NCBI GenBank assembly: GCA_964556925.1
Contig: CAZKXY010000001.1
Span: 2,790 to 66,789 of the forward strand
Reading direction: 5' to 3'
Source of the DNA: an uncultured Planctomycetales bacterium
GTDB taxonomy: Bacteria; Omnitrophota; Gorgyraeia; Aquiviventales; Aquiviventaceae
DNA length: 64,000 nt
Shown piece after piece: positions 9,155 through 55,950 of the stretch (position 1 is its first letter; each line of letters starts with the position of its first letter). Below the pieces are notes generated by a model. It saw nothing but the letters and a program-made list of their open reading frames with translations. It ran no database searches and had not been told where the DNA came from. A program made the position numbers and the translations under genes.

Positions 9155-10438
9155 ATGGACGTCCGGTTGGTGTGGAAGTCCTATTACGGGAATGAGCCGT
9201 TGACGCTGCAGCTGCCTGACGAGTGGGACGCGCAGGTGAGCGGGATGCCGCCGCGCCAGCCGTTGAGCGACGCGGCGATCGCGGACCGGATCGCGCAGGC
9301 GCCGGTTCGCTCGGGCAGGCTGCGCGATCTCGCGCGGGGCAAGCGGCGGGTCGTGATCGCGGTGGATGACCTCACCCGGCCGACCGAAGCCCACCGGCTG
9401 GCCCCTCCCGTGCTGTCCGAGCTGGCCGCCGCCGGCGTCGAGGCGCGGCACATCGTGTTCCTCGTCGCGATGGGCACGCACCGTCCCTATACCCTGCCGG
9501 ACCTCAGGAAGAAGCTCGGGGAGGAGATCGTCCAGACGTACGCCGTCTCGAATCACAGCTGCTACCAGCACCATCGTCTCATCGGCCGCACCTGCCGGGG
9601 CACGCCGGTGCAGATCAATCAGACGTACCTGGACGCCGACCTGAAGATCGGCATCGGCACCGTGATGCCGCACCCGATTGCGGGGTTCAGCGGGGGCGGC
9701 AAGCTCGTGACGATCGGCTTAGGCGGCATTGACACGGTGGAGGGGTTGCATCGGCCTGCGCTGACCAGCCTGCAGGGGACCATCGGGCGCGTCGAGGGCA
9801 ACCCGGTCCGGGAGGAGATCGAGGAGGGCCTCCGCTTGGCGGGGTTGGATTTTTTGGTCAACACCGTCCAAACGAGCACCGGGGCCACCGCGGAGGTCTT
9901 TGCCGGGGAGCCTGCGGCCGCCTACGCGGACGCGGTCCGGGCGGCGCAGCAGGCCTATGCCTGCGACGTCAGGTATCAGAACGACGTCGGGATCTTCAAC
10001 ACCTTCCCGCGGGACACCTGGATGCTCATGTCCTTCACCTCGCTGAACGTGTGGTCGACCCGGTCCCCGGAGAAGGCCGTGGTCCGGCCCGGCGGCTCGA
10101 TCGTCATCGTCAACGCCGCCTCCGAAGGCGTGGGCGAGCACGGCTTGATGACCAAAGGGATGCGGCAGTATCGCTTGAGGGATCAGCACGGCACGTTCAA
10201 GGACATGCTCCGAGACCGCGAGCTGGTGTTTCTCTCGCCGAACATCACGCGAGCCATGATCCGGGACTACTATCAGTGCGAGGTGCAACTCGTTCGGGAC
10301 GGCGACGCCCTGGTCCGGTCTCTCCGGCGGCGTCATCCTGGCCGGGCGCGCGTGTCGGTGTTCCCGCACGGGCCGCTGCAGATGGACGGCAGCTGCCTCA
10401 CCCCGGCCCCGGCGGTCTCGTCAGTCGCCCGTGGATGA
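9155..10438 (+). CDS. LarA-family protein (nickel-pincer-nucleotide dependent 2-hydroxyacid racemase/epimerase homolog, DUF2088)
   Basis: VIAVDDLTRPTE, AMGTHRP, NHSCYQHH...GTPVQINQTYLDADLKIGIGTVMPHPIAGFSGGGK, including the Lys that tethers the NPN cofactor in LarA. Full-length at 427 aa. Confidence 0.65.
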   Translation: MDVRLVWKSYYGNEPLTLQLPDEWDAQVSGMPPRQPLSDAAIADRIAQAPVRSGRLRDLARGKRRVVIAVDDLTRPTEAHRLAPPVLSELAAAGVEARHIVFLVAMGTHRPYTLPDLRKKLGEEIVQTYAVSNHSCYQHHRLIGRTCRGTPVQINQTYLDADLKIGIGTVMPHPIAGFSGGGKLVTIGLGGIDTVEGLHRPALTSLQGTIGRVEGNPVREEIEEGLRLAGLDFLVNTVQTSTGATAEVFAGEPAAAYADAVRAAQQAYACDVRYQNDVGIFNTFPRDTWMLMSFTSLNVWSTRSPEKAVVRPGGSIVIVNAASEGVGEHGLMTKGMRQYRLRDQHGTFKDMLRDRELVFLSPNITRAMIRDYYQCEVQLVRDGDALVRSLRRRHPGRARVSVFPHGPLQMDGSCLTPAPAVSSVARG

Positions 10439-18798: not shown

Positions 18799-20006
18799 AG
18801 GTGCTGCGGATCATCACGCGGTTGAACATCGGGGGGCCGGCGATCCATGCGGCCCTGTTGTCGACGCAGCTCGATGCCGGGCGCTTCCCCACCTGCCTCG
18901 TCGCGGGAACGCCGCAGGCGGGCGAGGGTGATCTGAGCGGCCTGGTGCGCGGCGGAGCCGTGCGCCTGGTGCGGCTGTCCACGCTCGTCCGGCCGATCCG
19001 CCCGTGGGCGGATGCGAGGACGCTGATCGCGCTGTTGCGGATCCTCTGGGCCGAGCGCCCGCAGGTCATCCACACGCATCTGGCCAAGGCCGGGGCGCTA
19101 GGCCGGCTGGCCGCTTTCCTCTATAATGGCCTCGGGCCCGGCCGGGCCCAGGGGGCGCGGGCCGCGGTGCTGCACACCTTTCACGGGCATGTGCTGGAGG
19201 GGTATTTCTCGCCGGCGCTGTCGCGGGCCTTCCTGGCGGTCGAACGATGGCTGGCGCGCCGGACGGACTGCCTGATCGCGGTCAGCCCGGCGATTCGGGA
19301 GGAGCTGTTGGGGCGCAAGCGGATCGGCCGGCCCGCGCAATGGCGGGTGATCCCGTTGGGGGTGGACCTCTCCGCCCTGGCGGCGCTTCCGTCGTCGGAC
19401 GGCGACTCCCCGGTTCGGATCGGCTTGGTCGGGCGGCTGGTGCCGATCAAAAACCCCGGGTTGTTCCTCGAGGCGGTGGCGCGGCTGGCGCCGCAGACGG
19501 CGCATCCGGTGCGGGGCGTGATGGTCGGTGACGGCCCGCTGCGGCCGGCGTTGGAGCGGCACGCCCGTCGGTTGGGGCTGGAGCAGGCGGTTCGCTTCGC
19601 CGGCTGGCAACAGGCGCTGCCGTCGGTCTACGGCGCGCTGGACATTGTGTGCCTGACCTCGTGGAATGAAGGGACGCCTGTCTCGGTCATCGAGGCGATG
19701 GCGTCCAGCCGCGCGGTCGTGGCGACCGATGTGGGCGGCGTGCGGGACCTGCTGGACGACGGCCAGGGGCCGCGCCAGCCGGTCGCGCCCGGCACGTTCC
19801 ACCTCGCGGCGCGCGGGATGCTCGTCCGCCCTGGGGATGCGCAGGGGCTGGCCGCCGCCCTGCGGGTCATGGTGGAGGATGCGGCGCTGCGCCGCCGGCT
19901 CGGCCAGGCGGCCCGCGCCTACGCGGTGGCGAGCTTCGCCCCCGAGCGGTTGGTGCGGGACATGGCCGCGTGCTACGAGGAGCTGATGGCAGGGAGGCAG
20001 CGATGA
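18795..20006 (+). CDS. GT4-family glycosyltransferase (Glycos_transf_1)
   Basis: N-terminal IGGPAIHAALL and the C-terminal donor-binding block LTSWNEGTPVSVIEAMASSRAVVATDVGG. ATGA overlap. Confidence 0.75.
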   Translation: MKVLRIITRLNIGGPAIHAALLSTQLDAGRFPTCLVAGTPQAGEGDLSGLVRGGAVRLVRLSTLVRPIRPWADARTLIALLRILWAERPQVIHTHLAKAGALGRLAAFLYNGLGPGRAQGARAAVLHTFHGHVLEGYFSPALSRAFLAVERWLARRTDCLIAVSPAIREELLGRKRIGRPAQWRVIPLGVDLSALAALPSSDGDSPVRIGLVGRLVPIKNPGLFLEAVARLAPQTAHPVRGVMVGDGPLRPALERHARRLGLEQAVRFAGWQQALPSVYGALDIVCLTSWNEGTPVSVIEAMASSRAVVATDVGGVRDLLDDGQGPRQPVAPGTFHLAARGMLVRPGDAQGLAAALRVMVEDAALRRRLGQAARAYAVASFAPERLVRDMAACYEELMAGRQR

Positions 20007-20038
20007 AGGCCTTGATGACGGGCGGGGCGGCGAGATGA
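20003..20038 (+). other. Leader mini-ORF MKALMTGGAAR (11 codons) coupled by ATGA overlaps to both the upstream GT4 stop and the downstream epimerase start
   Basis: Read directly from the sequence: atgaaggccttgatgacgggcggggcggcgagatga. The peptide mimics the N-terminus of the downstream protein (MKALITGGAGF). Confidence 0.4.
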
Positions 20039-21108
20039 AGGCGCTCATTACGGGCGGGGCGGGGTTCATCGGATCGCATCTGACCGAGGCGCTCCTCAGG
20101 CGGGGCGATCACGTGACGGTGCTGGACGATCTCTCGACCGGCCGGTACGAGAACCTCGCGCACCTGGACGGCCGCCCGGAGCTCCAGGTCGTCATCGGGA
20201 CGGTCCTGAACGAGACCCTGGTGGACAAGTTCACCGAGCGGTGCGACGTGGTATTCCACCTGGCGGCCGCGGTCGGGGTGGAGCTGATCATCAAGAAGCC
20301 GCTGGAGTCGCTCATGACCAACATCCGCGGCAGCGAGATCATCCTCGAGATGGCCCACCGGTACCGCAAGAAGGTCCTGGTCGCCTCCACCTCCGAGATC
20401 TACGGCAAGAACACCACCGGCCCGCTGCGGGAGGACACCGACCGGGTGCTGGGCTCGGCCCTGAAGACGCGGTGGAGCTACTCGACGTCGAAAGCCGTGG
20501 ATGAAATCCTCGCGTACGTCTACTGGAAAGAGAAGAAGGTCCCGACGGTCATCGTGCGCCTCTTCAACACGGTCGGGCCCAGGCAGAGCGGCGCGTACGG
20601 GATGGTGATCCCGCGGTTTGTCAGCCAGGCGCTGGCGGGCAGGCCCCTCCAGGTGCACGGGGACGGCACGCAGACCCGGTGCTTCCTGCACGTGAACGAT
20701 GTCGTGCAGGCCCTGACGAAGCTCATCGAGCATCCCGGCGCCGTGGGGCAGGTGTTCAACCTCGGCAGCCAGGAGGAGGTGACGATCGAGGAGCTGGCGA
20801 AGCGCATCATCCGCCTCACCGGCAGCGCCTCTCGCATCGAGTACCTCCCGTATGACCAGGCGTATGAGGAAGGCTACGAGGACATGCCGCGGCGGGTGCC
20901 GGATACGAGCAAGGTCCGCGCGCTGATCGGCTTTGCGCCGAGCATGAATCTCGATGAGACCATCCGCAGCGTGGTCAGGAGCATGCGGCCTGAGAGGCCG
21001 GCCGCGCCCGCCACGGATCGCCCCACCCCGCCGGCGCGCCGGCGCCTCCGGAGAGGTGTCAGACACCTTTCAAAGCGGGAAAAGTGTCTGACACCTCTGG
21101 TGCGATGA
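20035..21108 (+). CDS. NAD-dependent epimerase/dehydratase (GalE/WcaG-like nucleotide-sugar 4-epimerase)
   Basis: ITGGAGFIGSHL and YSTSK (YxxxK). The last ~15 codons read through repeat copy A1 (GVRHLSKREKCLTP), so the true C-terminus is uncertain. Confidence 0.8.
   Translation: MKALITGGAGFIGSHLTEALLRRGDHVTVLDDLSTGRYENLAHLDGRPELQVVIGTVLNETLVDKFTERCDVVFHLAAAVGVELIIKKPLESLMTNIRGSEIILEMAHRYRKKVLVASTSEIYGKNTTGPLREDTDRVLGSALKTRWSYSTSKAVDEILAYVYWKEKKVPTVIVRLFNTVGPRQSGAYGMVIPRFVSQALAGRPLQVHGDGTQTRCFLHVNDVVQALTKLIEHPGAVGQVFNLGSQEEVTIEELAKRIIRLTGSASRIEYLPYDQAYEEGYEDMPRRVPDTSKVRALIGFAPSMNLDETIRSVVRSMRPERPAAPATDRPTPPARRRLRRGVRHLSKREKCLTPLVR
21054..21096. repeat. Family-A double-palindrome element, copy A1 (short spacer CAAAGCGGG)
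   Basis: AGGTGTCAGACACCTTT-CAAAGCGGG-AAAAGTGTCTGACACCT. Each arm, GGTGTC-N-GACACC, is itself palindromic. Confidence 0.85.
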
Positions 21109-27425: not shown

Positions 27426-27518
27426 TCGTTGCTCGATCGTCCCTGCTTCTGGCTGCGGGGCCGGCTCGCCTGCGGTGCGCGGCATCGCTCCGGCCGCCCA
27501 GCGTGCGGCCGGTCGCTC

Positions 27519-27578
27519 AAAAGGTGTCAGACACCTTTCCCGATGCGAGACGAGCGGTCGAAAGGTGTCTGACACCTG
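27519..27578. repeat. Family-A element, copy A2 (long spacer containing GCGAGACGA)
   Basis: AAAGGTGTCAGACACCTTTCC-CGATGCGAGACGAGCGGTCG-AAAGGTGTCTGACACCTG. Lies in a 210-nt gap. Confidence 0.85.
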
Positions 27579-27636
27579 TTGCGATGCGCAGCGGCAGGAC
27601 CCGTCGGGCCAACACAGACCTGCAACAGGTGGCGGG

Positions 27637-28491
27637 ATGGCGCGACGCGTGACGATCGGGGCGGTGTACTGCGTCTACAACGAGGATGAGTACATCGCCT
27701 ATTCGATCCGGTCCATCCTCGGCTTCGCCGACCGGATCTTCGTGCTGCTCGGCCGGGCGCCGTATTCCGCCTATAACGCCAGGGCGCGGGAACAGTTCAC
27801 CGCGGCCGACCGGACCGAGGCGATCGTCGACGCGCTCGCCCGGGAGCATGCCGCCATCACGCTGGTGAAGGGGCTGTGGGACTCCGAGCTCGCGCACCGC
27901 AATGCCGGCTTGCAATGGTGCTGGCGCGAAGGCTGCCGCTACTACTTCCTGATCGACGGCGACGAGGTGTACCGGCGGGACCACCTTGTGCGGCTGCGGG
28001 AGGAGATCCTCGCGCATCCCGAGGCCGGGCAGTTCATCATCAAGTGCGACCTCTTCTGGCGCAGCTTCCGCTACCGGATCCCGGCGAGCGAGCTCGCGTG
28101 GATGCCGCGGCGGGTCTTCAAGCTGACGCGCGTCTCGGAGCTTGGCAAGACGCACCTGCCCGTGCCGCTGCGGTGCCGGTTCACCGGCAACAACAAAACC
28201 AATAGCTGGGGCGCGGTGCACCACCTGGAGCCATCCCAGGTGAAGTTCTACCACTTTTCCTTCGCGCGCTCCCCGGAGAAGATGCGCGAGAAACTGCTCA
28301 CCTACAGCCATGCCCACGAAATCCTGGACGGCTGGTTTGAGCGCGTCTGGTTGCGCTGGCCGCAGCAGCGCGACATGACGAACCTCAACCCGGTGGATCC
28401 GCCCAAGCTGCCCCGGGCCGTCCTCCACGACGTGGCCGATCTACCCGAGGTCATGCGGGACCATCCCTATTACCACCAGGACATCATATGA
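27637..28491 (+). CDS. GT-A fold glycosyltransferase (GT2-like, DxD = IDGDE)
   Basis: VYCVYNEDEYI and FLIDGDEVY. Confidence 0.5.
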   Translation: MARRVTIGAVYCVYNEDEYIAYSIRSILGFADRIFVLLGRAPYSAYNARAREQFTAADRTEAIVDALAREHAAITLVKGLWDSELAHRNAGLQWCWREGCRYYFLIDGDEVYRRDHLVRLREEILAHPEAGQFIIKCDLFWRSFRYRIPASELAWMPRRVFKLTRVSELGKTHLPVPLRCRFTGNNKTNSWGAVHHLEPSQVKFYHFSFARSPEKMREKLLTYSHAHEILDGWFERVWLRWPQQRDMTNLNPVDPPKLPRAVLHDVADLPEVMRDHPYYHQDII

Positions 28492-28492
28492 A

Positions 28493-28537
28493 CAGGTGTC
28501 AGACACCTTTCAAGGCGGGAAAAGTGTCTGACACCTG
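28493..28537. repeat. Family-A element, copy A3 (short spacer)
   Basis: CAGGTGTCAGACACCTTTCAAGGCGGGAAAAGTGTCTGACACCTG. Confidence 0.85.
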
Positions 28538-28616
28538 TGCGGCGGACTGGCCGCGCGTCGTCCGCAAATTCGGTCAGGCCGATGGGTGCACGATCGAGCG
28601 TCTGGGCCAGGACCAG

Positions 28617-29669
28617 GTGGAGGCGCTCTGCGACTTTTTCGCTCGCGCGTACGCCGACCGACCCCTCGCCCAGGCCTTCAGCGATCGGACCCTGATCCGT
28701 CGTCGATGGACGTGGTGGCACGAGGGCAATCCCGCTCGCCTCGACGCCGCGCCCCAGGCGTGGGTGTGCCGCCGCCAGGGTCAGATCATTGGACACATGG
28801 CGGCCCTGCCGGCGGTGGCGCTGGTCAACGGGCGGCCCCTGCCGGTCTGCTGGGGCGCAGACCTCATCGTGGCTCCGGAGCGGCGCCGCCACGGCCTCGG
28901 CCCCGTGCTCGTCATGACGCTCGTGCAGGCGATGCGGCAGCCGGTCATGATCGCCGGGACCAACGAGGACGCCTGCCCGATGTTCCGCCGCCTGGGGTTC
29001 GCGGATTGGGGGCGGCTGCCGCTCTACGTGCGGGTGCTCAGGCCGCGCCCGTTCTTCGACACGATGCCGTGGCCGCCGCTTGTCCGGCGGGTGACCGCCG
29101 CGGGATGGCAGGCCGCCGGCCGGGTCGCGTCTCGAGCCCCTCTCTCGCGACCAGGCGCCGTGGTGCCGTTGGAGCGGTTCGACGAGCGGTTCGATCGATG
29201 GTGGCAGCCCATCGAACGGACCTTTCCCGGCGTCATCCGGCGCACCAGCGACACCATGACCTGGCGGTATCACCAGCATCCTCACCACCACTATCAGGCC
29301 TTTGGCGCGATGTCGGCAGGGGCGCTGCGCGGGGTCGTCGTCCTGCGCCACGGCCGCTCCCGCGGCCTGCCGACAGGATTCATTACCGAGCTCCTCGCCG
29401 ATCCGAACGACCAGCAGACCATGGGGGACTTGCTGGCACACGCGCAGGAGGTCTTCACCGCCCACGCGCAGGAGGCCCCGGTGTTCATTCGATGCGCCGT
29501 CCTCCCTGGGGCGTTTGGGCGGGCCCTGCGGCGCGCCGGGTTCCTCCGGGTTCCCAGCCCGATCCATTGGATGGTGGCGCACGCTGACGGGCCCTCAGGC
29601 CTTAGCGACCTCGCGGGTCGGGACGGATGGTTCCTGAACGCGGGGGATAGCGATCTGGATGTGGTGTAG
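28617..29669 (+). CDS. GNAT-family N-acetyltransferase (two-domain)
   Basis: LIVAPERRRHGLGPVLV is an acetyl-CoA binding motif. The start is uncertain: the ORF-track start at 28488 lies inside repeat A3, and a GTG at 28617 is proposed instead. Confidence 0.55.
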   Translation: MEALCDFFARAYADRPLAQAFSDRTLIRRRWTWWHEGNPARLDAAPQAWVCRRQGQIIGHMAALPAVALVNGRPLPVCWGADLIVAPERRRHGLGPVLVMTLVQAMRQPVMIAGTNEDACPMFRRLGFADWGRLPLYVRVLRPRPFFDTMPWPPLVRRVTAAGWQAAGRVASRAPLSRPGAVVPLERFDERFDRWWQPIERTFPGVIRRTSDTMTWRYHQHPHHHYQAFGAMSAGALRGVVVLRHGRSRGLPTGFITELLADPNDQQTMGDLLAHAQEVFTAHAQEAPVFIRCAVLPGAFGRALRRAGFLRVPSPIHWMVAHADGPSGLSDLAGRDGWFLNAGDSDLDVV

Positions 29670-29678
29670 GCGGTGCGC

Positions 29679-29738
29679 ATGAGCCGCGTGCTGGTGACGG
29701 GCGGGGCGGGGTTCACCCCGCCCCGCCTCCCAAGATGA
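29679..29738 (+). other. Leader mini-ORF MSRVLVTGGAGFTPPRLPR (19 codons) ending in an ATGA overlap with the downstream epimerase start
   Basis: Read directly from the sequence. The peptide duplicates the N-terminus of the downstream protein (MRVLVTGGAGFIGSHL). It also contains the hairpin GGGCGGGGCGGGGTTCACCCCGCCCCGCC. Confidence 0.4.
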
Positions 29739-30853
29739 GAGTCCTGGTTACCGGAGGGGCGGGGTTCATTGGGTCGCATCTGGTGGATGCCCTGGTGCGC
29801 GAGGGGCATCAGGTCCGCGTCCTCGACAACCTGGAGCCGCAGGTGCACGAGGGGCGCCAGCCGGCGTATCTGCATCCTGACGCGGAGTACCGCTGGGGCG
29901 ACCTCCGCGACCGCCAGGCGGTCCGCAAGGCGCTGGAGGGCGTCAAGGTCGTCTTCCACGAGGCCGCCGCGGTCGGCGTCGGGCAGTCCATGTACCAGAT
30001 TGAGAAGTACGTCTCCGCGAACGTCCTGGGGACGGCCGTGTTGCTGGATGTCATCGTGACGGAGCGGGTGTCGATCCACAAGCTGGTGGTCGCCAGCTCC
30101 ATGAGCCTCTACGGCGAGGGCCACTACCGGTGCGAGGCCTGCGGCCCGATGGTCATTGCGCTGCGTCCGGCCGAGCAGCTCGCCGCGCGCCAGTGGGAGC
30201 CGCGCTGCCCGCGCTGTCGCGCGGCGGTGGTTCCGCAGCCGACCCCGGAAGACAAGCCGCTTGTGCCGACGTCGGTGTACGCGGTGTCCAAACGCGACCA
30301 GGAAGAGCTCTGCCTGACGGTCGGCGCCGCGCATCAGATTCCGATGGTCGCCCTGCGCTACTTCAACGTCTATGGGAGCCGCCAGGCGCTCTCCAACCCC
30401 TACACGGGCGTCTGCGCGATCTTCTCCGCCCGCATCAAGCACGCCAAGGCGCCGCTGCTCTTCGAGGATGGCCGGCAGGCGCGCGATTTCACCCACGTGC
30501 GCGACATCGTCCACGCGAACCTGCTGGTCATGCGCGAGGCGCGCGCCGATGGCCGCGTCTTCAACGTGGCCACGGGCCTGCCGACCAGCATCCTGGACAT
30601 CGCCCGGGCGCTGATCCGCTGCTATGGCGCGGCGGTGGAGCCCCAGGTGACGCAGCAGTTCCGCGCCGGCGACATCCGGCACTGTTACGCGGACATCCGG
30701 CGGCTGCGCGAGCTGGGCTTCTCGCCGAGCGTCCGGCTTGACGACGGCCTGCGGGAGCTGGTGGCCTGGGGCAGGCAGGAGCGGGCCGACGATCGCGTGG
30801 AGCTCGCGACGCGGGAGCTGACGAAGTTCGGGCTGGTGCGCGGCCATGGCTGA
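29735..30853 (+). CDS. NAD-dependent epimerase/dehydratase with an inserted Cys4 zinc-ribbon (CxxC...CxxC) before the catalytic YxxxK
   Basis: VTGGAGFIGSHL; the insert YRCEACGP...PRCPRCRA; and YAVSK. Confidence 0.75.
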   Translation: MRVLVTGGAGFIGSHLVDALVREGHQVRVLDNLEPQVHEGRQPAYLHPDAEYRWGDLRDRQAVRKALEGVKVVFHEAAAVGVGQSMYQIEKYVSANVLGTAVLLDVIVTERVSIHKLVVASSMSLYGEGHYRCEACGPMVIALRPAEQLAARQWEPRCPRCRAAVVPQPTPEDKPLVPTSVYAVSKRDQEELCLTVGAAHQIPMVALRYFNVYGSRQALSNPYTGVCAIFSARIKHAKAPLLFEDGRQARDFTHVRDIVHANLLVMREARADGRVFNVATGLPTSILDIARALIRCYGAAVEPQVTQQFRAGDIRHCYADIRRLRELGFSPSVRLDDGLRELVAWGRQERADDRVELATRELTKFGLVRGHG

Positions 30854-32009
30854 GCCGGTCTGCGATCTCGTGCTGTTAAGCTGGAACCACCTGGAGCAGA
30901 CCCGGCCGTGCCTTGAGACGCTGGCCGGCTCCACCACCGTGCCGTGCCGTTTGTTCCTCGTGGATAACGGCAGCGAGCCCCCGGTGCGGGAGTTCCTCCG
31001 CGGCGTGCGCCCAGCCGGCGCGATCCAAGAGGTGGTGCTCCTGCAGAACGAGACAAACGAGGGCTTCCCCCGCGGGATGAACCGCGGCATCCGCGCCTCG
31101 CGCGCGCCGTACGTGTGCCTGCTCAACAACGACCTGCGGTTGACCACCGGCTGGCTCGAGGAGCTCGTGGCGGTGGCCGAGGCCCATCCGACCCTGGGGG
31201 TGCTCAACCCCAACACCAGCAACCTCGACAACACCCCGAAAGGGATCACGCTGGAAGCCTATGCCCAGCGCCTGCGCGCCGCGCGCGGGCAGCATCTGGA
31301 GCTGGGGATGTGCATCGGCTTCTGCATGCTCATCAAGCGGGCGGTGCTGGATGCGATCGGGGGCCTGAGCGAGGAGGTGGAGCGGATCTTTTTTGAAGAC
31401 GAGGACTTCTGCATGCGCGCGCAGCAGGCCGGCTTCCAGTGCGGAGTGGCGCTGGGCGCCTACGTGTTCCACGCCGAGCACCAGACCGTCAAGGAGCTGC
31501 CGGAGCGCGAGGCGCTCTTCGCCCGGAACCGGCGCTGGTGCCACGGCAAGTGGGGGCGCTGGGTGCGGATGGCCTGGCCGCGGTTTACGCCGGTGGTGCC
31601 GGGCTCCAGTGAGCTGCGGCACTGGCTGGAGCAGCTGCTCGGCTTCGTCAGGCGCCGCACGCTGGTCTACGTCTATGGCCCGATGCCGGACGGCTTCAGC
31701 CGCGACGGGTTGTGTCGCTCCGTGGGGCTCGTCCCGCACGCGGACCTGCGCTGGTATGCGGTGCCGCGAGCGCTGGCGCCACTCGCCGCCGCCGCGATGA
31801 TCCTCAAGCGGCGCAAGAAGCGGTTCAACGTGATCACGGCCCCGACGCCAGGCTGGGGACGGTGGATGCGACGGTTCACGCCGCTGCACGGGGCAGCGGT
31901 GGTGCCGGAAGACGATGACGCGCGGCTGCGCGCCGAGTGGGCGCGCGCCGCCTGGCGCGGGCTGGCCGAGCCGGCCGCGCCGCCGAGGGACGGGAAGACG
32001 CGGCCATGA
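30846..32009 (+). CDS. GT2 glycosyltransferase (rhamnosyl/galactosyl-transferase-like) with a C-terminal extension
   Basis: LVDNGS and LLNNDLRLTTGWLEEL motifs. It is paralogous to the second domain of the next gene. Confidence 0.7.
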   Translation: MAEPVCDLVLLSWNHLEQTRPCLETLAGSTTVPCRLFLVDNGSEPPVREFLRGVRPAGAIQEVVLLQNETNEGFPRGMNRGIRASRAPYVCLLNNDLRLTTGWLEELVAVAEAHPTLGVLNPNTSNLDNTPKGITLEAYAQRLRAARGQHLELGMCIGFCMLIKRAVLDAIGGLSEEVERIFFEDEDFCMRAQQAGFQCGVALGAYVFHAEHQTVKELPEREALFARNRRWCHGKWGRWVRMAWPRFTPVVPGSSELRHWLEQLLGFVRRRTLVYVYGPMPDGFSRDGLCRSVGLVPHADLRWYAVPRALAPLAAAAMILKRRKKRFNVITAPTPGWGRWMRRFTPLHGAAVVPEDDDARLRAEWARAAWRGLAEPAAPPRDGKTRP

Positions 32010-32142: not shown

Positions 32143-34005
32143 ATGAGGGTTCCGGTGTCGGTGGTGATCCTCACCAAAAACGAGGCCGGCCGCATCCGCG
32201 AGTGCCTCGAGAGCGTGCGGTGGGCGGATGAGGTCCTCGTCGTCGATGACAACAGCACCGATGAGACCGTCCCGCTCGCGCAATCGCTCGGCGCCCGGGT
32301 GCTCCGGCGCACCATGGACCTCGAGGGCCGGCACCGCAACTGGGCCGCCGCCCAAGCCGCGCACGAGTGGGTCTTCAGCCTGGACGCGGACGAGCGCGTC
32401 ACCCCGGAGCTGGCGCAGGAGATCACCGCGCTGCTGCAGGGTCCTCCCGTCTACGAGACCTATGCGATCCCTCGGCGCAACTACATCGGGGACCGGTGGA
32501 TTCGGCACGGCGGCTGGTACCCCAGCGCCCAGGTGAAACTGTTCAAGAAATCGGCGTTTCGGTGGGAAGAGACCACCGTCCACCCCCGGGCCATCGGGCC
32601 GGCCGCCGGCGAGCTGACGCACGAGCTGCTTCACTACTCCTATCGTGACCTCGCGGATTTTGTCAGCAAGCTGGATCGCCAGACGACGTTGGAGTCGGAG
32701 AAGTGGGTCGCCGATGGCCGCCGCATGACGCTGGGCAAAGCCCTCTGGCGAAGCGCTGATCGGTTCTGGCGGGCCTTCGTGGGCAAGCAGGGCTGGCGGG
32801 ATGGGGTCTGGGGATTCCTCGTCGCGGTCATGGCCGGCTGCTACCAGATCCTGAGCTACGCGAAATATTGGGAGGCGCTCCTGCGCCTGCGCCACGAGCC
32901 CGCCACCTCTCCCGGCGCGCAGGAGGCGGCCGAGACGACGCCGGTCCTCTGCGACCTGATCGTGCTCACCTGGAACCGCGCGGATTTACTCCGGAGCTGC
33001 GTCGAGCGGCTCCTGGCCCATACGCCGCTTCCCAGCCGGCTCCTCATCGTGGATAACGGCAGCACCGATCCGGAGGCGTTGGGGTACCTGGACGCGCTGC
33101 GCCGGCGCCACCCGCGCGGCGTCGAGGTCATCCGGCATCCGGCCAACATCGGGATCGCCGCCGCGCTCAATGCCGGGCTGGCCCGGACCCGGGCGCCCTG
33201 GATCGGCCTGCTCAACAATGACGCCTTCGTGACCGCCGGCTGGCTGGAGGAGCTGATCGCCGTGGCGGAGTCCGACCCGTCGATCGGCCTGGTCAACCCC
33301 ATGAGCAACCAGTTCGGCCTCGCCCCCCGCGCGCGCGAAACCATCGATGCGGTCGCGCGCCGATGCCGCGCGGCCCGCGGGCGGTGGATCGAGCAGTCCC
33401 GCGCTGAGGGATTTTGCGTCGTGCTGCCCCGCCGGGTCTTCGAGCGCGTGGGCTATTGGGATGACACGCTGGGCGGGATGTTTTACGAGGACGCCGATTA
33501 CGCCCTGCGCGCGCGCCAGGCCGGGTTCCGCTCGGTGGTGGCCGAAGGGGCCTATGTCTATCATGTCGGCGGCGCAACGATCGGGCGGGACCCGGCGCGG
33601 CACGAGCGCTTCGCAGCAAGCGCCGCGCGCTTTGCTCGGAAGTGGCCCCTGGCCCAGCCGCAGCGGATGGGCTGGATCCTGGGGCGCGAACGCGGCCCTG
33701 CGCTGACGCCCGCGGCCTGCGCCATCCGCGAGCTGGCGAACGCGGGCCACAAGCTCTGGGTGTTCGGCGCCGCCGGCCAGGTGCGCGAGCTGCCCCGGCA
33801 TCTGCAGGTCGTCCCGGTGACGCTGCCGCGGGTCGGCGGATCCCTCGTCGCGCTGTGGCGGATCCTGACCAAGAAAAAACGCTTCCAGCGGATCGTCGTC
33901 GAGCCGGGCGCACTCGCGCGCGCGGTGAGGAGCCTCACCCCGCTGCACCGGGCGATGGTGGAGCCGCCTCCGGTCCGGCAGGACTCGCCTGATGGCGTCC
34001 CGTGA
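32143..34005 (+). CDS. Dual-domain glycosyltransferase: GT2 (WaaE/KdtX-like LTKNE type) followed by GT2 (rhamnosyltransferase-like)
   Basis: Domain 1: VSVVILTKNEAGRIRECLESVRWADEVLVVDD. Domain 2: LIVDNGS ... LLNNDAFVTAGWLEEL. Confidence 0.7.
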   Translation: MRVPVSVVILTKNEAGRIRECLESVRWADEVLVVDDNSTDETVPLAQSLGARVLRRTMDLEGRHRNWAAAQAAHEWVFSLDADERVTPELAQEITALLQGPPVYETYAIPRRNYIGDRWIRHGGWYPSAQVKLFKKSAFRWEETTVHPRAIGPAAGELTHELLHYSYRDLADFVSKLDRQTTLESEKWVADGRRMTLGKALWRSADRFWRAFVGKQGWRDGVWGFLVAVMAGCYQILSYAKYWEALLRLRHEPATSPGAQEAAETTPVLCDLIVLTWNRADLLRSCVERLLAHTPLPSRLLIVDNGSTDPEALGYLDALRRRHPRGVEVIRHPANIGIAAALNAGLARTRAPWIGLLNNDAFVTAGWLEELIAVAESDPSIGLVNPMSNQFGLAPRARETIDAVARRCRAARGRWIEQSRAEGFCVVLPRRVFERVGYWDDTLGGMFYEDADYALRARQAGFRSVVAEGAYVYHVGGATIGRDPARHERFAASAARFARKWPLAQPQRMGWILGRERGPALTPAACAIRELANAGHKLWVFGAAGQVRELPRHLQVVPVTLPRVGGSLVALWRILTKKKRFQRIVVEPGALARAVRSLTPLHRAMVEPPPVRQDSPDGVP

Positions 34006-34894
34006 ACCCCGCCCCACGGCCTGCCCGCCCCGCTCCGCTGGAGCGGGCCAGCGATCTCACCCGCTCGATGAACGGGCTGGGCTCACAGGCGGGGCTTCCG
34101 TGGGGCGGGGTGAACGGCTGACCGCGCTGCTCTTGACGAAGAACGAGGAAGCGCAATTGCGGCGCTGCCTGGACAGCGTCCGGTGGGCCGATGAGGTCGT
34201 GGTCGTCGATGGCCAGAGCACCGACCGCACCCCCCAGATCGCTCGAGACTACGGCGCAACCGTGGTGTCGCGGCCGTTCAGCGGCTCCTTCGCCGAGGAG
34301 CGCAACGCCGGCCTGGCGGTCGCCACCGGCGACTGGGTGCTCCAGATGGACGCGGACGAGCAGGTCAGCCCGGGCCTGCGCGCGGCGATCGAGCGGCTCT
34401 TGGCCGACGGCTCGCCCCACGCGGCGTTCAAGCTGAGGCGGCTCAACACGTTCCTCGGCCGGACGATGCGCCACGGTGGCTGGTACCACTACCACACGGC
34501 GCTGTTCCGCCGGCAGGGCGCGCGGTACGAGGGGCTGGTGCATGAGCGGCTGCGCCACCAGGGGAGCGTGGGCGTCCTGGAGGCGGACCTGTGCCACGAG
34601 CCGTTTCAGTCGATCAGCCAGTTCCTCGCGCGCCAGAACCGCTACACCAGTCTGCAGGCGCGCGAGCTGTTCGAGCGCCAGGGGCGACTGCCGCTGGCGC
34701 GCGTGAGGCGCCAATTGTGGGCCCGCCCGCTCAAGCTGTTCTGGAAAGCGTACGTCAAGAAGCAGGGCTTCCGCGAGGGCCGGCACGGCTTGATGTTCTC
34801 GATCCTGTTTGCGTGGGTGGATTTCCTCTTGTGGGCCAAGTATTGGGAACTGGTCTGGGCGGGATCCAGCGGAGACGCGCGCCGCCATGCGTGA
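33992..34894 (+). CDS. GT2 glycosyltransferase (WaaE/KdtX-like), paralog of domain 1 of the preceding gene
   Basis: LTALLLTKNEEAQLRRCLDSVRWADEVVVVDGQSTD. The start is ambiguous. The ATG at 33992 would place a strong hairpin inside the N-terminal coding region. An alternative GTG near 34100 lies just after that hairpin. Confidence 0.6.
   Translation: MASREPRPTACPPRSAGAGQRSHPLDERAGLTGGASVGRGERLTALLLTKNEEAQLRRCLDSVRWADEVVVVDGQSTDRTPQIARDYGATVVSRPFSGSFAEERNAGLAVATGDWVLQMDADEQVSPGLRAAIERLLADGSPHAAFKLRRLNTFLGRTMRHGGWYHYHTALFRRQGARYEGLVHERLRHQGSVGVLEADLCHEPFQSISQFLARQNRYTSLQARELFERQGRLPLARVRRQLWARPLKLFWKAYVKKQGFREGRHGLMFSILFAWVDFLLWAKYWELVWAGSSGDARRHA
34001..34116. promoter_or_regulatory. Structured element bounded by a perfect 14-bp long-range inverted repeat, upstream of (or within the 5' end of) the paralogous GT2 gene
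   Basis: ACCCCGCCCCACGG (34006-34019) / CCGTGGGGCGGGGT (34098-34111). Flanking direct GTGAAC repeats. Inner hairpin CCGCTCC-gct-GGAGCGG. Confidence 0.45.
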
Positions 34895-40526: not shown

Positions 40527-41267
40527 ATGACCGTGGTTGACCGGCGGGCGATGGCCCGCGCATTGCAGCGGCATGTGGAAGGGCTGCGGCTCATGGGCGT
40601 GACGCATCTGCCTGCCTGCCGCGCCGATGATCAGTCGGACTGGGCGTCATGGCGCGGCGCGGGATCAGGAACACCCTCCAGGTCTGAGCGGCTGGCCCGG
40701 CTGGCCGCGGAGGTGGCGCGCTGCCGGCGCTGTCCGCTCTACCGCACGAGGACGCACGCGGTTGTCAGCGACGGCAGCCCCGAGGCCCGCCTCGTGTTTG
40801 TCGGGGAAGCCCCGGGTCGAGAGGAAGACCTCCAGGGCAAGCCGTTCGTCGGGGCCGCGGGGCAGCTCCTGACCAAGATGATCGCGGCGATGGGGATGCG
40901 GCGGCAGGACGTGTACATCTGCAACGTGTTGAAGGACCGGCCGCCGGCCAACCGCACCCCGCTGCCGGAGGAGATGGACGCGTGCCTGCCGTTTTTGGAG
41001 CAGCAGCTCGCCATCGTCCACCCGCGCGTCATCTGCACGCTCGGCGCGGTCGCCACGAAGGCGCTCCTGGGCCCCTCGGTCCCCCTCTCCGCCATCCGGG
41101 GCACGGTGCGCGACTTCCGCGGCACCCCGCTCGTGCCGACGTTCCACCCCGCGTACCTGCTGCGCAATCCCGCCGCCAAGAAGTTCGCCTGGGCCGACCT
41201 CAAGACCGTGAAGTCGCTCTTAGAAGAAAAGGTGTCAGACACTTTTCAAAGCGGGAAAAGTGTCTGA
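40527..41267 (+). CDS. Uracil-DNA glycosylase, family 4 (4Fe-4S type)
   Basis: CRRCPLY, GEAPGREED and HPAYLLR motifs. The last ~12 codons read through repeat A4. Confidence 0.8.
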   Translation: MTVVDRRAMARALQRHVEGLRLMGVTHLPACRADDQSDWASWRGAGSGTPSRSERLARLAAEVARCRRCPLYRTRTHAVVSDGSPEARLVFVGEAPGREEDLQGKPFVGAAGQLLTKMIAAMGMRRQDVYICNVLKDRPPANRTPLPEEMDACLPFLEQQLAIVHPRVICTLGAVATKALLGPSVPLSAIRGTVRDFRGTPLVPTFHPAYLLRNPAAKKFAWADLKTVKSLLEEKVSDTFQSGKSV

Positions 41268-41274
41268 CACCCTT
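41227..41274. repeat. Family-A element, copy A4 (short spacer), between udg and priA
   Basis: AAAAGGTGTCAGACACTTTTCAAAGCGGGAAAAGTGTCTGACACCCTTT. Confidence 0.85.
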
Positions 41275-41275
41275 T

Positions 41276-44088: not shown

Positions 44089-44134
44089 GGCCGCATTATC
44101 GCCGAATCGACCGGTGGCGTCAACGGCCGCCCCA

Positions 44135-44181
44135 AAGGTGTCAGACACCTTTTCCGCTTTGAAAAGTGTCTGACACCTTTT
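44135..44181. repeat. Family-A element, copy A5 (short spacer, opposite orientation), between the TPR gene and def
   Basis: AAAGGTGTCAGACACCTTTTCCGCTTTGAAAAGTGTCTGACACCTTTT, the reverse complement of the A1/A4 spacer. Confidence 0.85.
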
Positions 44182-47767: not shown

Positions 47768-47842
47768 CGGTGTCAGGCACTTCGCTCCGCCTACAATGGT
47801 GTCAGACACTTTTCAAAGCGGGAAAAGTGTCTGACACCTTTT
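47768..47842. repeat. Family-A element, copy A6 (short spacer), preceded by an A/B hybrid half-site, between galT-like copy 2 and gap
   Basis: GGTGTCAGGCACTTCGC ... GGTGTCAGACACTTTTCAAAGCGGGAAAAGTGTCTGACACCTTTT. Confidence 0.8.
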
Positions 47843-48943: not shown

Positions 48944-50200
<1,257 letters not shown>

Positions 50201-50215
50201 GCGATTGGGTTGCTG

Positions 50216-51390: not shown

Positions 51391-51452
51391 AAAAGGTGTC
51401 AGACACCTTCTTCGCTGCGAGACGACCGCTCAACAGGTGTCTGACACCTTTT
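51391..51452. repeat. Family-A element, copy A7 (long spacer), between secG and the peptide-binding protein
   Basis: AAAAGGTGTCAGACACCTTCTTCGCTGCGAGACGACCGCTCAACAGGTGTCTGACACCTTTT. Confidence 0.85.
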
Positions 51453-53042: not shown

Positions 53043-53230
53043 TGGTACCGGGTCTTGCTCTGTCGAACAGCCACGGTTCCAGAGCAAAACGTGTCAGACA
53101 CGTTTCCCGCTGCGAGACGACCGGTCGAAAGGTGTCTGACACCTGTTGCGGTCGTCCCAGCGGCTGTTCGACAGAGCAACCGGGTCTCATTTTTTCCTCC
53201 GAGGACGATAGAAAAATGAGACCCGGTACC
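53043..53230. repeat. Family-A element, copy A8 (long spacer, core about 53087-53150), nested in a larger palindromic intergenic structure that includes an AT-rich 13-bp stem hairpin
   Basis: Core: GTGTCAGACACGTTTCCCGCTGCGAGACGACCGGTCGAAAGGTGTCTGACACCTGTTGCGGTCGTCCCAGCGGCTGTTCGACAGAGC. Outer pair: GGTACCGGGTCTTGCTCTGTCGAACAG / CTGTTCGACAGAGCAACCGGGTCTC ... GAGACCCGGTACC. Inner hairpin: GGGTCTCATTTTT...AAAAATGAGACCC. Confidence 0.8.
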
Positions 53231-55852: not shown

Positions 55853-55858
55853 CCTGGC

Positions 55859-55950
55859 AAACGGTGTCAGACACCTTTCCCGAGGCGAGACGACAGGTCG
55901 AAAGGTGTCTGACACCGTTTGCGGTCGTCCCGACGGGTTTTCGACACAGC
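55859..55950. repeat. Family-A element, copy A9 (long spacer plus a 3' extension shared with A8), between the two ABC ATPase genes
   Basis: AAACGGTGTCAGACACCTTTCCCGAGGCGAGACGACAGGTCGAAAGGTGTCTGACACCGTTTGCGGTCGTCCCGACGGGTTTTCGACACAGC. Confidence 0.85.

Follow-up and report, generated by a model that had tools for sequence, protein, structure and literature searches.

A displaced gene start, probably retained as a short relay frame, precedes an epimerase gene in an Omnitrophota polysaccharide cluster

A relic of the gene start upstream of the epimerase

We analysed a 64,000-nucleotide (nt) stretch of contig CAZKXY010000001.1 from an uncultured Omnitrophota bacterium (assembly GCA_964556925.1; hereafter, the window) and focused on a 19-codon open reading frame (ORF) directly upstream of an epimerase gene of the extended short-chain dehydrogenase/reductase (SDR) type. 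Comparison with the closest relative of the epimerase showed that this mini-ORF (hereafter, the leader) is the displaced original start of the gene. It is reasonably likely that the leader is the scar of imprecise recombination or duplication at the G-rich Rossmann site and was retained as a relay ORF, from which ribosomes would pass to the epimerase by termination and reinitiation.

The leader (ATG AGC CGC GTG CTG GTG ACG GGC GGG GCG GGG TTC ACC CCG CCC CGC CTC CCA AGA TGA) encodes MSRVLVTGGAGFTPPRLPR followed by a stop, and its TGA (29736–29738) overlaps the ATG of the epimerase (29735–29737). Both the mini-ORF and the overlap had been described in an initial annotation made from the letters of the window, and both are borne out. 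Codons 1–12 are the displaced old 5' end of the epimerase gene and codons 13–19 run through inserted filler. The duplication is visible as a 28-nt direct repeat (29688–29715 and 29741–29768), the copies being 86% identical and 53 nt apart. The whole 64 kb contains just 8 families of short-range direct repeats, of which this is one, and GGNGGNGCNGGNTTY occurs three times in the window against 0.17 expected.

The epimerase family is common in groundwater metagenome-assembled genomes (MAGs) of Candidatus Omnitrophota, and the best matches in the genome collection are 69–70% identical. The closest relative (P0002, at locus L162; 82% amino-acid identity) is leaderless. Its gene starts as GAGGAGG-N6-ATG AGT CGG GTT CTG GTG ACG GGC GGC GCG GGG TTC ATC, encoding MSRVLVTGGAGF-IGSHL, and the GAGGAGG, located at the site equivalent to the Shine-Dalgarno (SD) sequence of the leader, forms an anti-SD duplex of −12.7 kcal/mol. 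The MSRVLV N-terminus, with its extra Ser codon, was found only in L162/P0002 among the 120 best homologues, and it equals the window leader through codon 12. The 31 nt of the leader that code for RVLVTGGAGF are likewise nearest to the real start of L162 (3 differences) among 184 SDR 5' ends in the fetched loci. Removal of 53 nt (29716–29768) from the window gives back a single L162-type ORF, MSRVLVTGGAGFIGSHL.

Because the unique start of this leaderless sister matches the leader through codon 12, we read the leader as the ancestral start of the gene, and the AGGCGG in front of it (29668–29673) is the predicted ancestral ribosome-binding site of the epimerase. The mimicry of the epimerase N-terminus, to which the initial annotation had drawn attention, is thus real, with a likeness beyond chance, but it reflects homology by descent from the first 12 codons of the gene and not a purpose-built mimic.

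Proposed formation and operation of the relay frame

We propose that an event at the G-rich Rossmann coding site (GGC GGG GCG GGG TTC A) severed the SD sequence, the ATG and the first 12 codons from the gene. It would have added 53 nt after codon 12, comprising a short filler and a second, slightly different start codon with 11 codons. The two ATGs are 56 nt apart (2 mod 3) and the new start forms ATGA, so the stop of the old frame falls precisely on the new start codon. Ribosomes would load at the old SD sequence, or come from the GNAT acetyltransferase gene 9 nt upstream, and would read the 19-codon relic, melting the two helices (a:b and b:d) described below. Termination at the UGA would be followed by reinitiation at the overlapping AUG, itself devoid of an SD sequence, so that the relic would serve as a relay ORF holding the epimerase in the translational coupling chain of the operon. 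Such an event would be tolerated in this register only, and a deletion between the 13-nt direct repeats GGGGCGGGGTTCA could easily undo it, properties that would fit the patchy distribution of leaders reported next.

Leaders at a second gene of the window and at other loci

A leader of the same layout, called copy 1 in the initial annotation (the epimerase leader being copy 2), is present as claimed before the second SDR gene of the window (20035–21108), and encodes MKALMTGGAAR and a stop (Table 1). Its ATG overlaps the stop of a glycosyltransferase family 4 (GT4) gene (TGA, 20004–20006) as ATGA, and its TGA overlaps the SDR ATG at 20035, again as ATGA. In relatives of this locus the GT4 stop overlaps the SDR ATG directly, by sequence in L169/L171 (CGATGAA) and by gene coordinates in P0153 and P0152. 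The leader ATG of copy 1 (20003) would therefore stand at the ancestral start, the functional ATG lying 32 nt downstream. An MKALM start was found in no relative of copy 1, and an MKALI start in 40 of 120. The copy 1 repeat has a period of 32 nt and 78% identity, nearer to a tandem-duplication pattern than copy 2, and its fold is not significant (z = −1.1). We conclude that copy 1 is the same kind of event as copy 2, at a second SDR gene. The third SDR gene, of RmlD type at 10435, is leaderless, as had been noted, and has a direct ATGA overlap with its upstream gene.

The comparison of epimerase orthologues that the initial annotation had suggested as a check showed that the leader is absent not only from L162 but from about 170 orthologous loci. 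An N-terminus-like motif upstream of the gene was detected at 0 of 80 genome loci and at 1 of 79 metagenome loci (L092). A strict TGGAG-like regular expression missed L092, in which a Gly-to-Glu change lies inside the Rossmann motif of the leader; a search allowing 2 mismatches found L092 and a duplication at locus L008.

L092, from the Joint Genome Institute (JGI), and the identical L163, from the European Nucleotide Archive (ENA), encode an epimerase with 68% amino-acid identity to that of the window, preceded by a Glyco_trans_1_2 transferase gene and not by GNAT. Their leader (ATG CGC ACC CTC GTG ACG GGC GAG GCC GGC TTC ACC CCG CCC CTT ... GCA TGA; MRTLVTGEAGFTPPLTADGASA and a stop) ends with a TGA that overlaps the real ATG at L092 3001. 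It has the AGGAG-N8 context of the real start of the related L086, which is also its nearest sequence (4 differences).

A shorter leader (ATG TGC GCC CTC GTA GCG GGT GGG GCG GGA GCC CCT CGA TGA; MCALVAGGAGAPR and a stop) occurs at L167, where the epimerase is 88% identical to that of L092, the upstream context is the same and the ATGA overlap is at 1440. Relative to L092, the L167 leader has an in-frame deletion of 27 nt that removed TTCA and the following segment b, so the hairpin is gone. The two leaders otherwise have about 6 non-synonymous and 4 synonymous differences, and their peptides differ at many residues. Judged from these aligned loci, the leaders keep the open frame and the ATGA overlap, and neither the peptide nor the hairpin.

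Six loci (L164–166, L168, L172 and L173) are leaderless despite 83–95% identity to the L092 epimerase. The epimerase proteins at L172 (1258) and L173 (446) are 94–95% identical to that of L092 and follow unrelated upstream genes, and the first residues differ across the comparison of L172, L173 and L092 (MRVLV, MTTVLV and MKVLV). These differences in upstream genes and first codons suggest that the 5' boundary of the epimerase gene is a recombination hotspot in Omnitrophota polysaccharide clusters. In a neighbour-joining tree the leaderless P0031 was nested between L092 and L167, which means either that the leader was lost there or that the topology is not resolved.

The duplication at L008 (3617–3815; JAKFXM010000208.1) belongs to a Methanobacteriota archaeon MAG. 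Here about 64 nt of the 5' end of another SDR gene, AAAATGTTTGATAGAATCTTAATCACGGGCGGTGCAGGATTCATAGGCTCGCACCTTGCTGAATA, are repeated directly and exactly. The first copy stops as MFDRILITGGAGFIGSHLAE, then follow a 70-nt A/T-rich filler with the palindrome ACAAACCCTTTTCTTT / AAAGAAAAGTGTTTGT and the full gene. This is a fresh event of like architecture, with a 5' relic, a hairpin-containing filler and an intact gene.

Evidence for the proposed translational coupling

Leader detection was independent of reading frame. The offsets between leader and gene start were 56, 65, 38 and 32 nt, all four being 2 mod 3 with the stop inside ATGA, a shared pattern with a chance of about (1/3)^3 = 0.04 or less. 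The overlap of stop and start was found at 29735, 20035, L092 3001 and L167 1440. Each leader of the window also has a candidate source of ribosomes, namely AGGCGG and the nearby GNAT stop for copy 2, and GGGAGG and the ATGA overlap with GT4 for copy 1. As copy 2 adjoins the GNAT stop (9 nt) and copy 1 overlaps its upstream gene, the leaders would be links in a chain of coupled genes.

The real epimerase ATG at 29735 has no SD sequence (+0.5 kcal/mol over the preceding 20 nt, with CCUCCC before the ATG) and was the weakest of 24 starts tested, in a window where many genes have none. The anti-SD duplexes of the leader ATGs reach −7.0 kcal/mol for copy 2 and −11.1 kcal/mol for copy 1 (GGGAGG). 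The second codons that create ATGA in the leader-bearing genes are AGA, AAA, AAC and AAG; leaderless relatives mostly start with ATGCGC. In the epimerase the codon is AGA (29735–29740 covering codons 1 and 2), the rarest Arg codon in 20 window genes (10 of 956; 1.0%), and the sister gene uses CGG at this position. This is consistent with selection for the ATGA overlap, or with a foreign origin of the first ~34 nt.

Huber et al. 2019 (PMC6728339) recorded strict coupling for 13 of 14 tested ATGA/TGATG pairs. An RNA-unfolding component of translational coupling is described in a review (PMC12548453), and the helix around the real start in the window and L092 fits this model. Taken together, the leader is probably translated and coupled to the epimerase gene. 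Since only the frame and the ATGA overlap are kept among the leaders, simple translational coupling is indicated and not sensing.

A less likely, though serious, alternative is that the scar is neutral: the relic ORF would have no role, and the epimerase would start independently at 29735 by an SD-independent or weak route, or be poorly expressed. On this view the ATGA overlap would be survivorship, insertions in other frames having destroyed expression and vanished. The leaders are patchy and easily lost, with L164–166, L172 and L173 leaderless in a clade of 89–95% identical proteins; the peptide evolves approximately neutrally between L092 and L167, and genes without SD sequences are frequent in the window. 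However, survivorship itself implies that the overlap matters and so differs from the relay reading in degree only, the SD of the real ATG is the weakest among the 24 starts and a −32 kcal/mol hairpin lies directly 5' of this ATG, and the overlap survived the in-frame 27-nt deletion in L167.

Hairpin and alternative helix

The initial annotation had placed a 13-bp perfect hairpin within the leader. A hairpin is present, but its perfection was overstated, as it comprises 12 Watson-Crick G-C pairs and one G-U wobble. The arms GGCGGGGCGGGG (29700–29711) and CCCCGCCCCGCC (29716–29727) enclose the loop TTCA, and the stem is closed by the wobble G29699-U28. The folding energy is −32.4 kcal/mol (z = −5.1), and none of 200 shuffled sequences was equally stable. 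The 5' arm (a) is the Rossmann-motif coding sequence of the relic and the 3' arm (b) is formed by the first 12 nt of the inserted block.

Segment b can alternatively pair with the start of the real gene (segment d). This b:d helix, which surrounds the real start codon, folds at −29 kcal/mol in the window; its L092 equivalent reaches −33 kcal/mol. Both a and d are complementary to b because they are duplicate coding sequences. An upstream complement (at least 9 nt) of the gene's own Rossmann-coding stretch was found only in leader-bearing loci among 187 SDR 5' ends. In L092 the 5' arm of the hairpin has decayed (GGGCGAGGCCGGC), and as a result only the b:d helix is left.

A search of 29400–30000 against Rfam 15 at permissive thresholds gave no match at or above the gathering score; the best was C4 antisense RNA (25.1 bits against a threshold of 45), and the remaining matches in this region were sub-threshold, generic hairpins. 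A scan of 28400–31000 for promoters and terminators detected nothing promoter-like and, at the hairpin, no T-tract terminator. Runs of codons are absent from the leader; a Pro-Pro pair and the b:d helix at the start are present, both derived from the C-rich filler.

The initial annotation had proposed that the leader pauses ribosomes or acts as a structure-dependent switch. We consider it rather improbable that the leader is a dedicated leader peptide or attenuator-like switch, in which pausing (for example at Pro-Pro) or the choice between a:b and b:d tunes the epimerase to a signal. Segments a, b and d do allow mutually exclusive helices (−32 and −29 kcal/mol), of which b:d surrounds the real start, T-P-P is encoded by the filler of the window as well as that of L092, and the a:b pairing is perfect in the window. 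Against this, the leader is not conserved, being missing from the sister gene and about 170 orthologues; in L092 the a arm has degenerated, and the L167 deletion took out both a:b and b. Copy 1 has no significant fold, and the searches above detected neither sensing-codon runs nor an Rfam match or terminator.

Origin of the inserted block

Alignment with L162 delimits an inserted block of 53 nt composed of segment b, a short segment c and segment d, the last carrying the new start and 11 codons (Table 1). The filler CCCCGCCCCGCCTCCCAAG (19 nt) is unrelated to the flanks, and the two copies of the start have different letters at 6 of 31 positions. A clean 56-nt tandem duplication was dismissed as the origin: the unit tails are unrelated, and the second copy resembles the L092 gene more closely than it does the first copy or the sister. 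Snap-back (fold-back) synthesis of the 3' arm was not adopted either, since the TTCA loop offers no primer pairing; it is also disfavoured by L092, where the arm is complementary to the downstream copy and not to the adjacent one.

The d segments of the window and L092 are reciprocally nearest (3 differences, the next best having 4–5, among the 184 SDR 5' ends). Over nucleotides 1–34 the window gene shares 91% identity with L092 and 79% with L162; over nucleotides 35–150 it shares 63% with L092 and 80% with L162 (mosaic Fisher p = 0.044). The junction TTCA|CCCCGCCCC is common to the window and L092 and occurs in no other of the 162 loci searched; among the same loci, no donor 5' untranslated region with TTCACCCCGCCCC was found outside the leader-bearing ones. 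These observations suggest homology of the b-c-d block between two lineages with gene bodies that encode 68% identical proteins. Possible origins are lateral spread by recombination in the Rossmann-coding flanks, an old insertion followed by many losses, and a site-specific or mobile process.

A further structure of similar form was observed at 34003–34117, TGAA[CCCCGCCCCACGG...CCGTGGGGCGGGG]TGAA, with 78 nt between the ends (−83 kcal/mol, z = −4.7). Its first TGA is the stop of a glycosyltransferase family 2 (GT2) gene ending at 34005, and the next GT2 domain starts right after the element. With the epimerase insertion this element shares the inverted-end motif CCCCGCCCC/GGGGCGGGG and the form of the flanks, a 4-nt direct repeat.

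Slightly less credible again than a switch, in our judgement, is a laterally spreading or mobile self-healing insertion that homes into SDR Rossmann-coding sequence with its own start and replacement codons. It may have moved by short-homology recombination or by a transposon-like step leaving a TTCA duplication, and may have been tolerated since it supplied its own start codon and placed the stop of the old frame on it. This would explain the junction TTCA|CCCCGCCCC in two distant epimerase genes with different resident 5' ends, the reciprocal nearest d segments and the mosaic signal (p = 0.044). The form TTCA[CCCCGCCCC...GGGGCGGGG]TTCA resembles a target-site duplication with inverted ends, the element at 34003–34117 has the same form, and just 4 such C..G pairs occur in the 1.0 Mb of fetched loci. 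However, just two or three instances are known, the 1.0 Mb yielding 3 independent cases; their interiors differ in length (49, 61 and 104 nt) and sequence, no transposase or further copies were seen, and copy 1 and L167 are without inverted ends. The right-hand inverted end and target-site duplication are also conserved codons (G-A-G-F-I), so the transposon look may be illusory.

We give very little credence to programmed bypassing, in which translation would start at 29679, take off from the TTC at 29712–29714 in the hairpin loop and land on the TTC at 29765–29767, 53 nt downstream. The product would be MSRVLVTGGAGF-IGSHL (an MSRVLVTGGAGFIGS... N-terminus) in place of the MRVLV... expected by reinitiation. 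Take-off and landing would use matching codons in identical 5' contexts (GGGGCGGGGTTCA), TTC is found at both L092 sites, and the take-off hairpin is stable. But ACC and not a stop follows the take-off, the in-frame ATG at 29735 lies in the gap and makes bypassing unnecessary, the take-off context is missing in L167 and copy 1, and the matching codons are a by-product of the duplication.

An assembly artefact, either a chimeric strain join or a palindrome-induced error, is hardly believable: the source is a metagenome, and palindromes and short repeats are known trouble spots for assemblers, but when the misassembly raised by the initial annotation was checked against L001, a separately assembled ENA contig of another length (36 kb, the window being at least 64 kb), the sequence was identical over 7.1 kb including the leader, the exact epimerase protein occurs on 5 contigs, homologous architecture occurs in independent metagenomes (L092 from JGI = L163 from ENA; variant L167), and the 28-nt repeats are far below the k = 141 suggested by the k141_ prefix of contig names.

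Several points weigh against the relay reading as we have proposed it. The window and L092 lineages, at 68% protein identity and with many leaderless lineages between them, have the same junction and mutually nearest d segments. A simple local scar does not predict this, and lateral spread of a 5' block, many losses or a site-specific process would be needed. The 12 of 12 perfect a:b pairs, kept despite the divergence of a and d, could mean that the hairpin was selected in the window lineage, and a −32 kcal/mol hairpin inside the leader ORF could impede the ribosome instead of being neutral. In addition, the real ATGs of L092, L167 and copy 1 have a moderate SD-like GGAG (−6 to −7 kcal/mol), so coupling is perhaps not obligatory there. 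Finally, it is from sequence that we infer the translation of the leader, reinitiation as the main route to the epimerase, and the manner of insertion.

Comparison with known systems

The arrangement is closest in form to ATGA termination-reinitiation pairs (PMC6728339, PMC12548453), with which it has in common the overlap of stop and start, a weak or absent downstream SD sequence and a start-enclosing helix that would be melted from upstream. Unlike in such gene pairs, the upstream partner is an 11–22 codon relic of the 5' end of the downstream gene and not a gene, and the coupling is secondary, brought about by an out-of-frame insertion with a start codon. Attenuators and switches of the trpL, ermCL and pyrL type likewise have a short upstream ORF and three segments with alternative helices, whereas the leader has no regulatory codons, terminator, or conserved peptide or helices, and the closest orthologue is leaderless.

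In Escherichia coli, the icd' fragment beside prophage e14 or phage 21 is a duplicated gene end at an integration junction. The leader is similar to icd'-type fragments in being a gene terminus beside a functional copy, with mainly synonymous differences and a replacement end given by incoming DNA, but here the 5' end is concerned, 19–31 nt without element cargo lie between the copies, and the fragment remains a linked ORF.

Translational bypassing elements include that of T4 gene 60 and the 'byps' GC-rich insertions of Magnusiomyces mitochondria. Such elements also comprise a GC-rich, hairpin-forming insertion of about 50 nt between identical codons, but the insertion described here has its own in-frame AUG and no stop after the take-off site, and hopping would be needless. 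Lastly, miniature inverted-repeat transposable elements (MITEs), repetitive extragenic palindromic (REP) sequences and Rickettsia palindromic elements show a formal likeness in the 4-nt direct repeat flanking inverted ends; in contrast to MITE and REP insertions, 2–3 copies are present here, the interiors are not conserved, and one of the 'ends' is ordinary coding sequence.

Implications

The case illustrates how a gene may survive an out-of-frame insertion in its first codons if the insert brings an ATGA start in the right register. The old start would become a short relay ORF, with expression and the operon coupling chain preserved by termination-reinitiation. Such structures have arisen repeatedly: two genes of the cluster have them, as do one or more further Omnitrophota lineages, and an archaeal MAG carries a recent, exact duplication. 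This suggests that the G-rich Rossmann-motif coding sequence of SDR genes is a breakpoint of cassette exchange in polysaccharide clusters. For annotation, such relics explain mini-ORFs that mimic N-termini and bear on the calling of start codons, and they should not be counted as regulatory leaders. The biological importance is modest, unless the shared junction reflects a mobile self-healing insertion.

Genomic context and other repeats in the window

The window (GC content 69.6%) contains a long same-strand polysaccharide-biosynthesis cluster encoding glycosyltransferases of families 1, 2, 4 and 9, a Wzy-like ligase, a DegT aminotransferase, a deacetylase, GNAT and the three SDR enzymes. The epimerase is an extended SDR with an internal CxxC...CxxC insert that aligns over its full length to its homologues, and these carry the JGI annotation dTDP-L-rhamnose 4-epimerase. 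The upstream GNAT gene ends with TAG (29667–29669). Its start call is doubtful, and the true start may be further downstream, because a palindromic repeat (28492–28539) lies inside the called N-terminus.

Table 1 Coordinates of the features at the two leader-bearing genes of the window.
Feature	Position	Strand	Basis
Copy 1, putative relay mini-ORF, MKALMTGGAAR and stop	20003..20038	+	Sequence
GNAT acetyltransferase gene, upstream neighbour	28488..29669	+	Pfam Acetyltransf_1 E = 1e-11; ORF list; gene call on L001
SD-like AGGCGG, 5 nt before leader ATG	29668..29673	+	Anti-SD duplex −7.0 kcal/mol
Copy 2, leader and putative relay mini-ORF, 19 codons, MSRVLVTGGAGFTPPRLPR and stop	29679..29738	+	Read from sequence; comparison with L162
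Hairpin a:b, 12 G-C pairs and one G-U, loop TTCA	29699..29728	+	Folding
Alternative helix b:d, CCCCGCCCC pairing with GGGGCGGGG in codons 8–10 of the real gene	29716..29764	+	Folding
Inserted 53-nt block, CCCCGCCCCGCC (b), TCCCAAG (c), ATGAGAGTCCTGGTTACCGGAGGGGCGGGGTTCA (d, new start and 11 codons)	29716..29768	+	Alignment with L162
Epimerase gene, 372 amino acids, MRVLVTGGAGFIGSHL	29735..30853	+	Pfam Epimerase E = 2.7e-53, two stretches

Nine palindromic repeat pairs, each consisting of AAAGGTGTCAGACACCTTTC and, 28 or 41 nt later (start to start), its complement AAAAGTGTCTGACACCTTTT, were detected at 21052–21099, 27518–27581, 28492–28539, 41227–41275, 44134–44181, 47795–47842, 51392–51452, 53087–53147 and 55857–55922. 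The pairs lie at gene boundaries, where each folds into a hairpin whose stem is about 20 bp long, and they look REP-like or like shared terminators or operators. This GGTGTCAGACACC family of palindromic intergenic repeats is unrelated to the epimerase insertion.

Two other inverted repeats were observed. An imperfect palindrome at 50138–50203 has 36-nt arms that are 83% complementary around the centre CAATTG (CGCTCCGGGCTCAGGGCTGTGGGCTCTGGGCAATTGCCCCGAGCCCCGAGCCCAGAACCCTGAGCG). The other, at 53179–53227, adjoins a GGTGTCAGACACC repeat pair; it is perfect over 16 nt, contains A/T runs (ACCGGGTCTCATTTTT ...17 nt... AAAAATGAGACCCGGT) and resembles a bidirectional intrinsic terminator.

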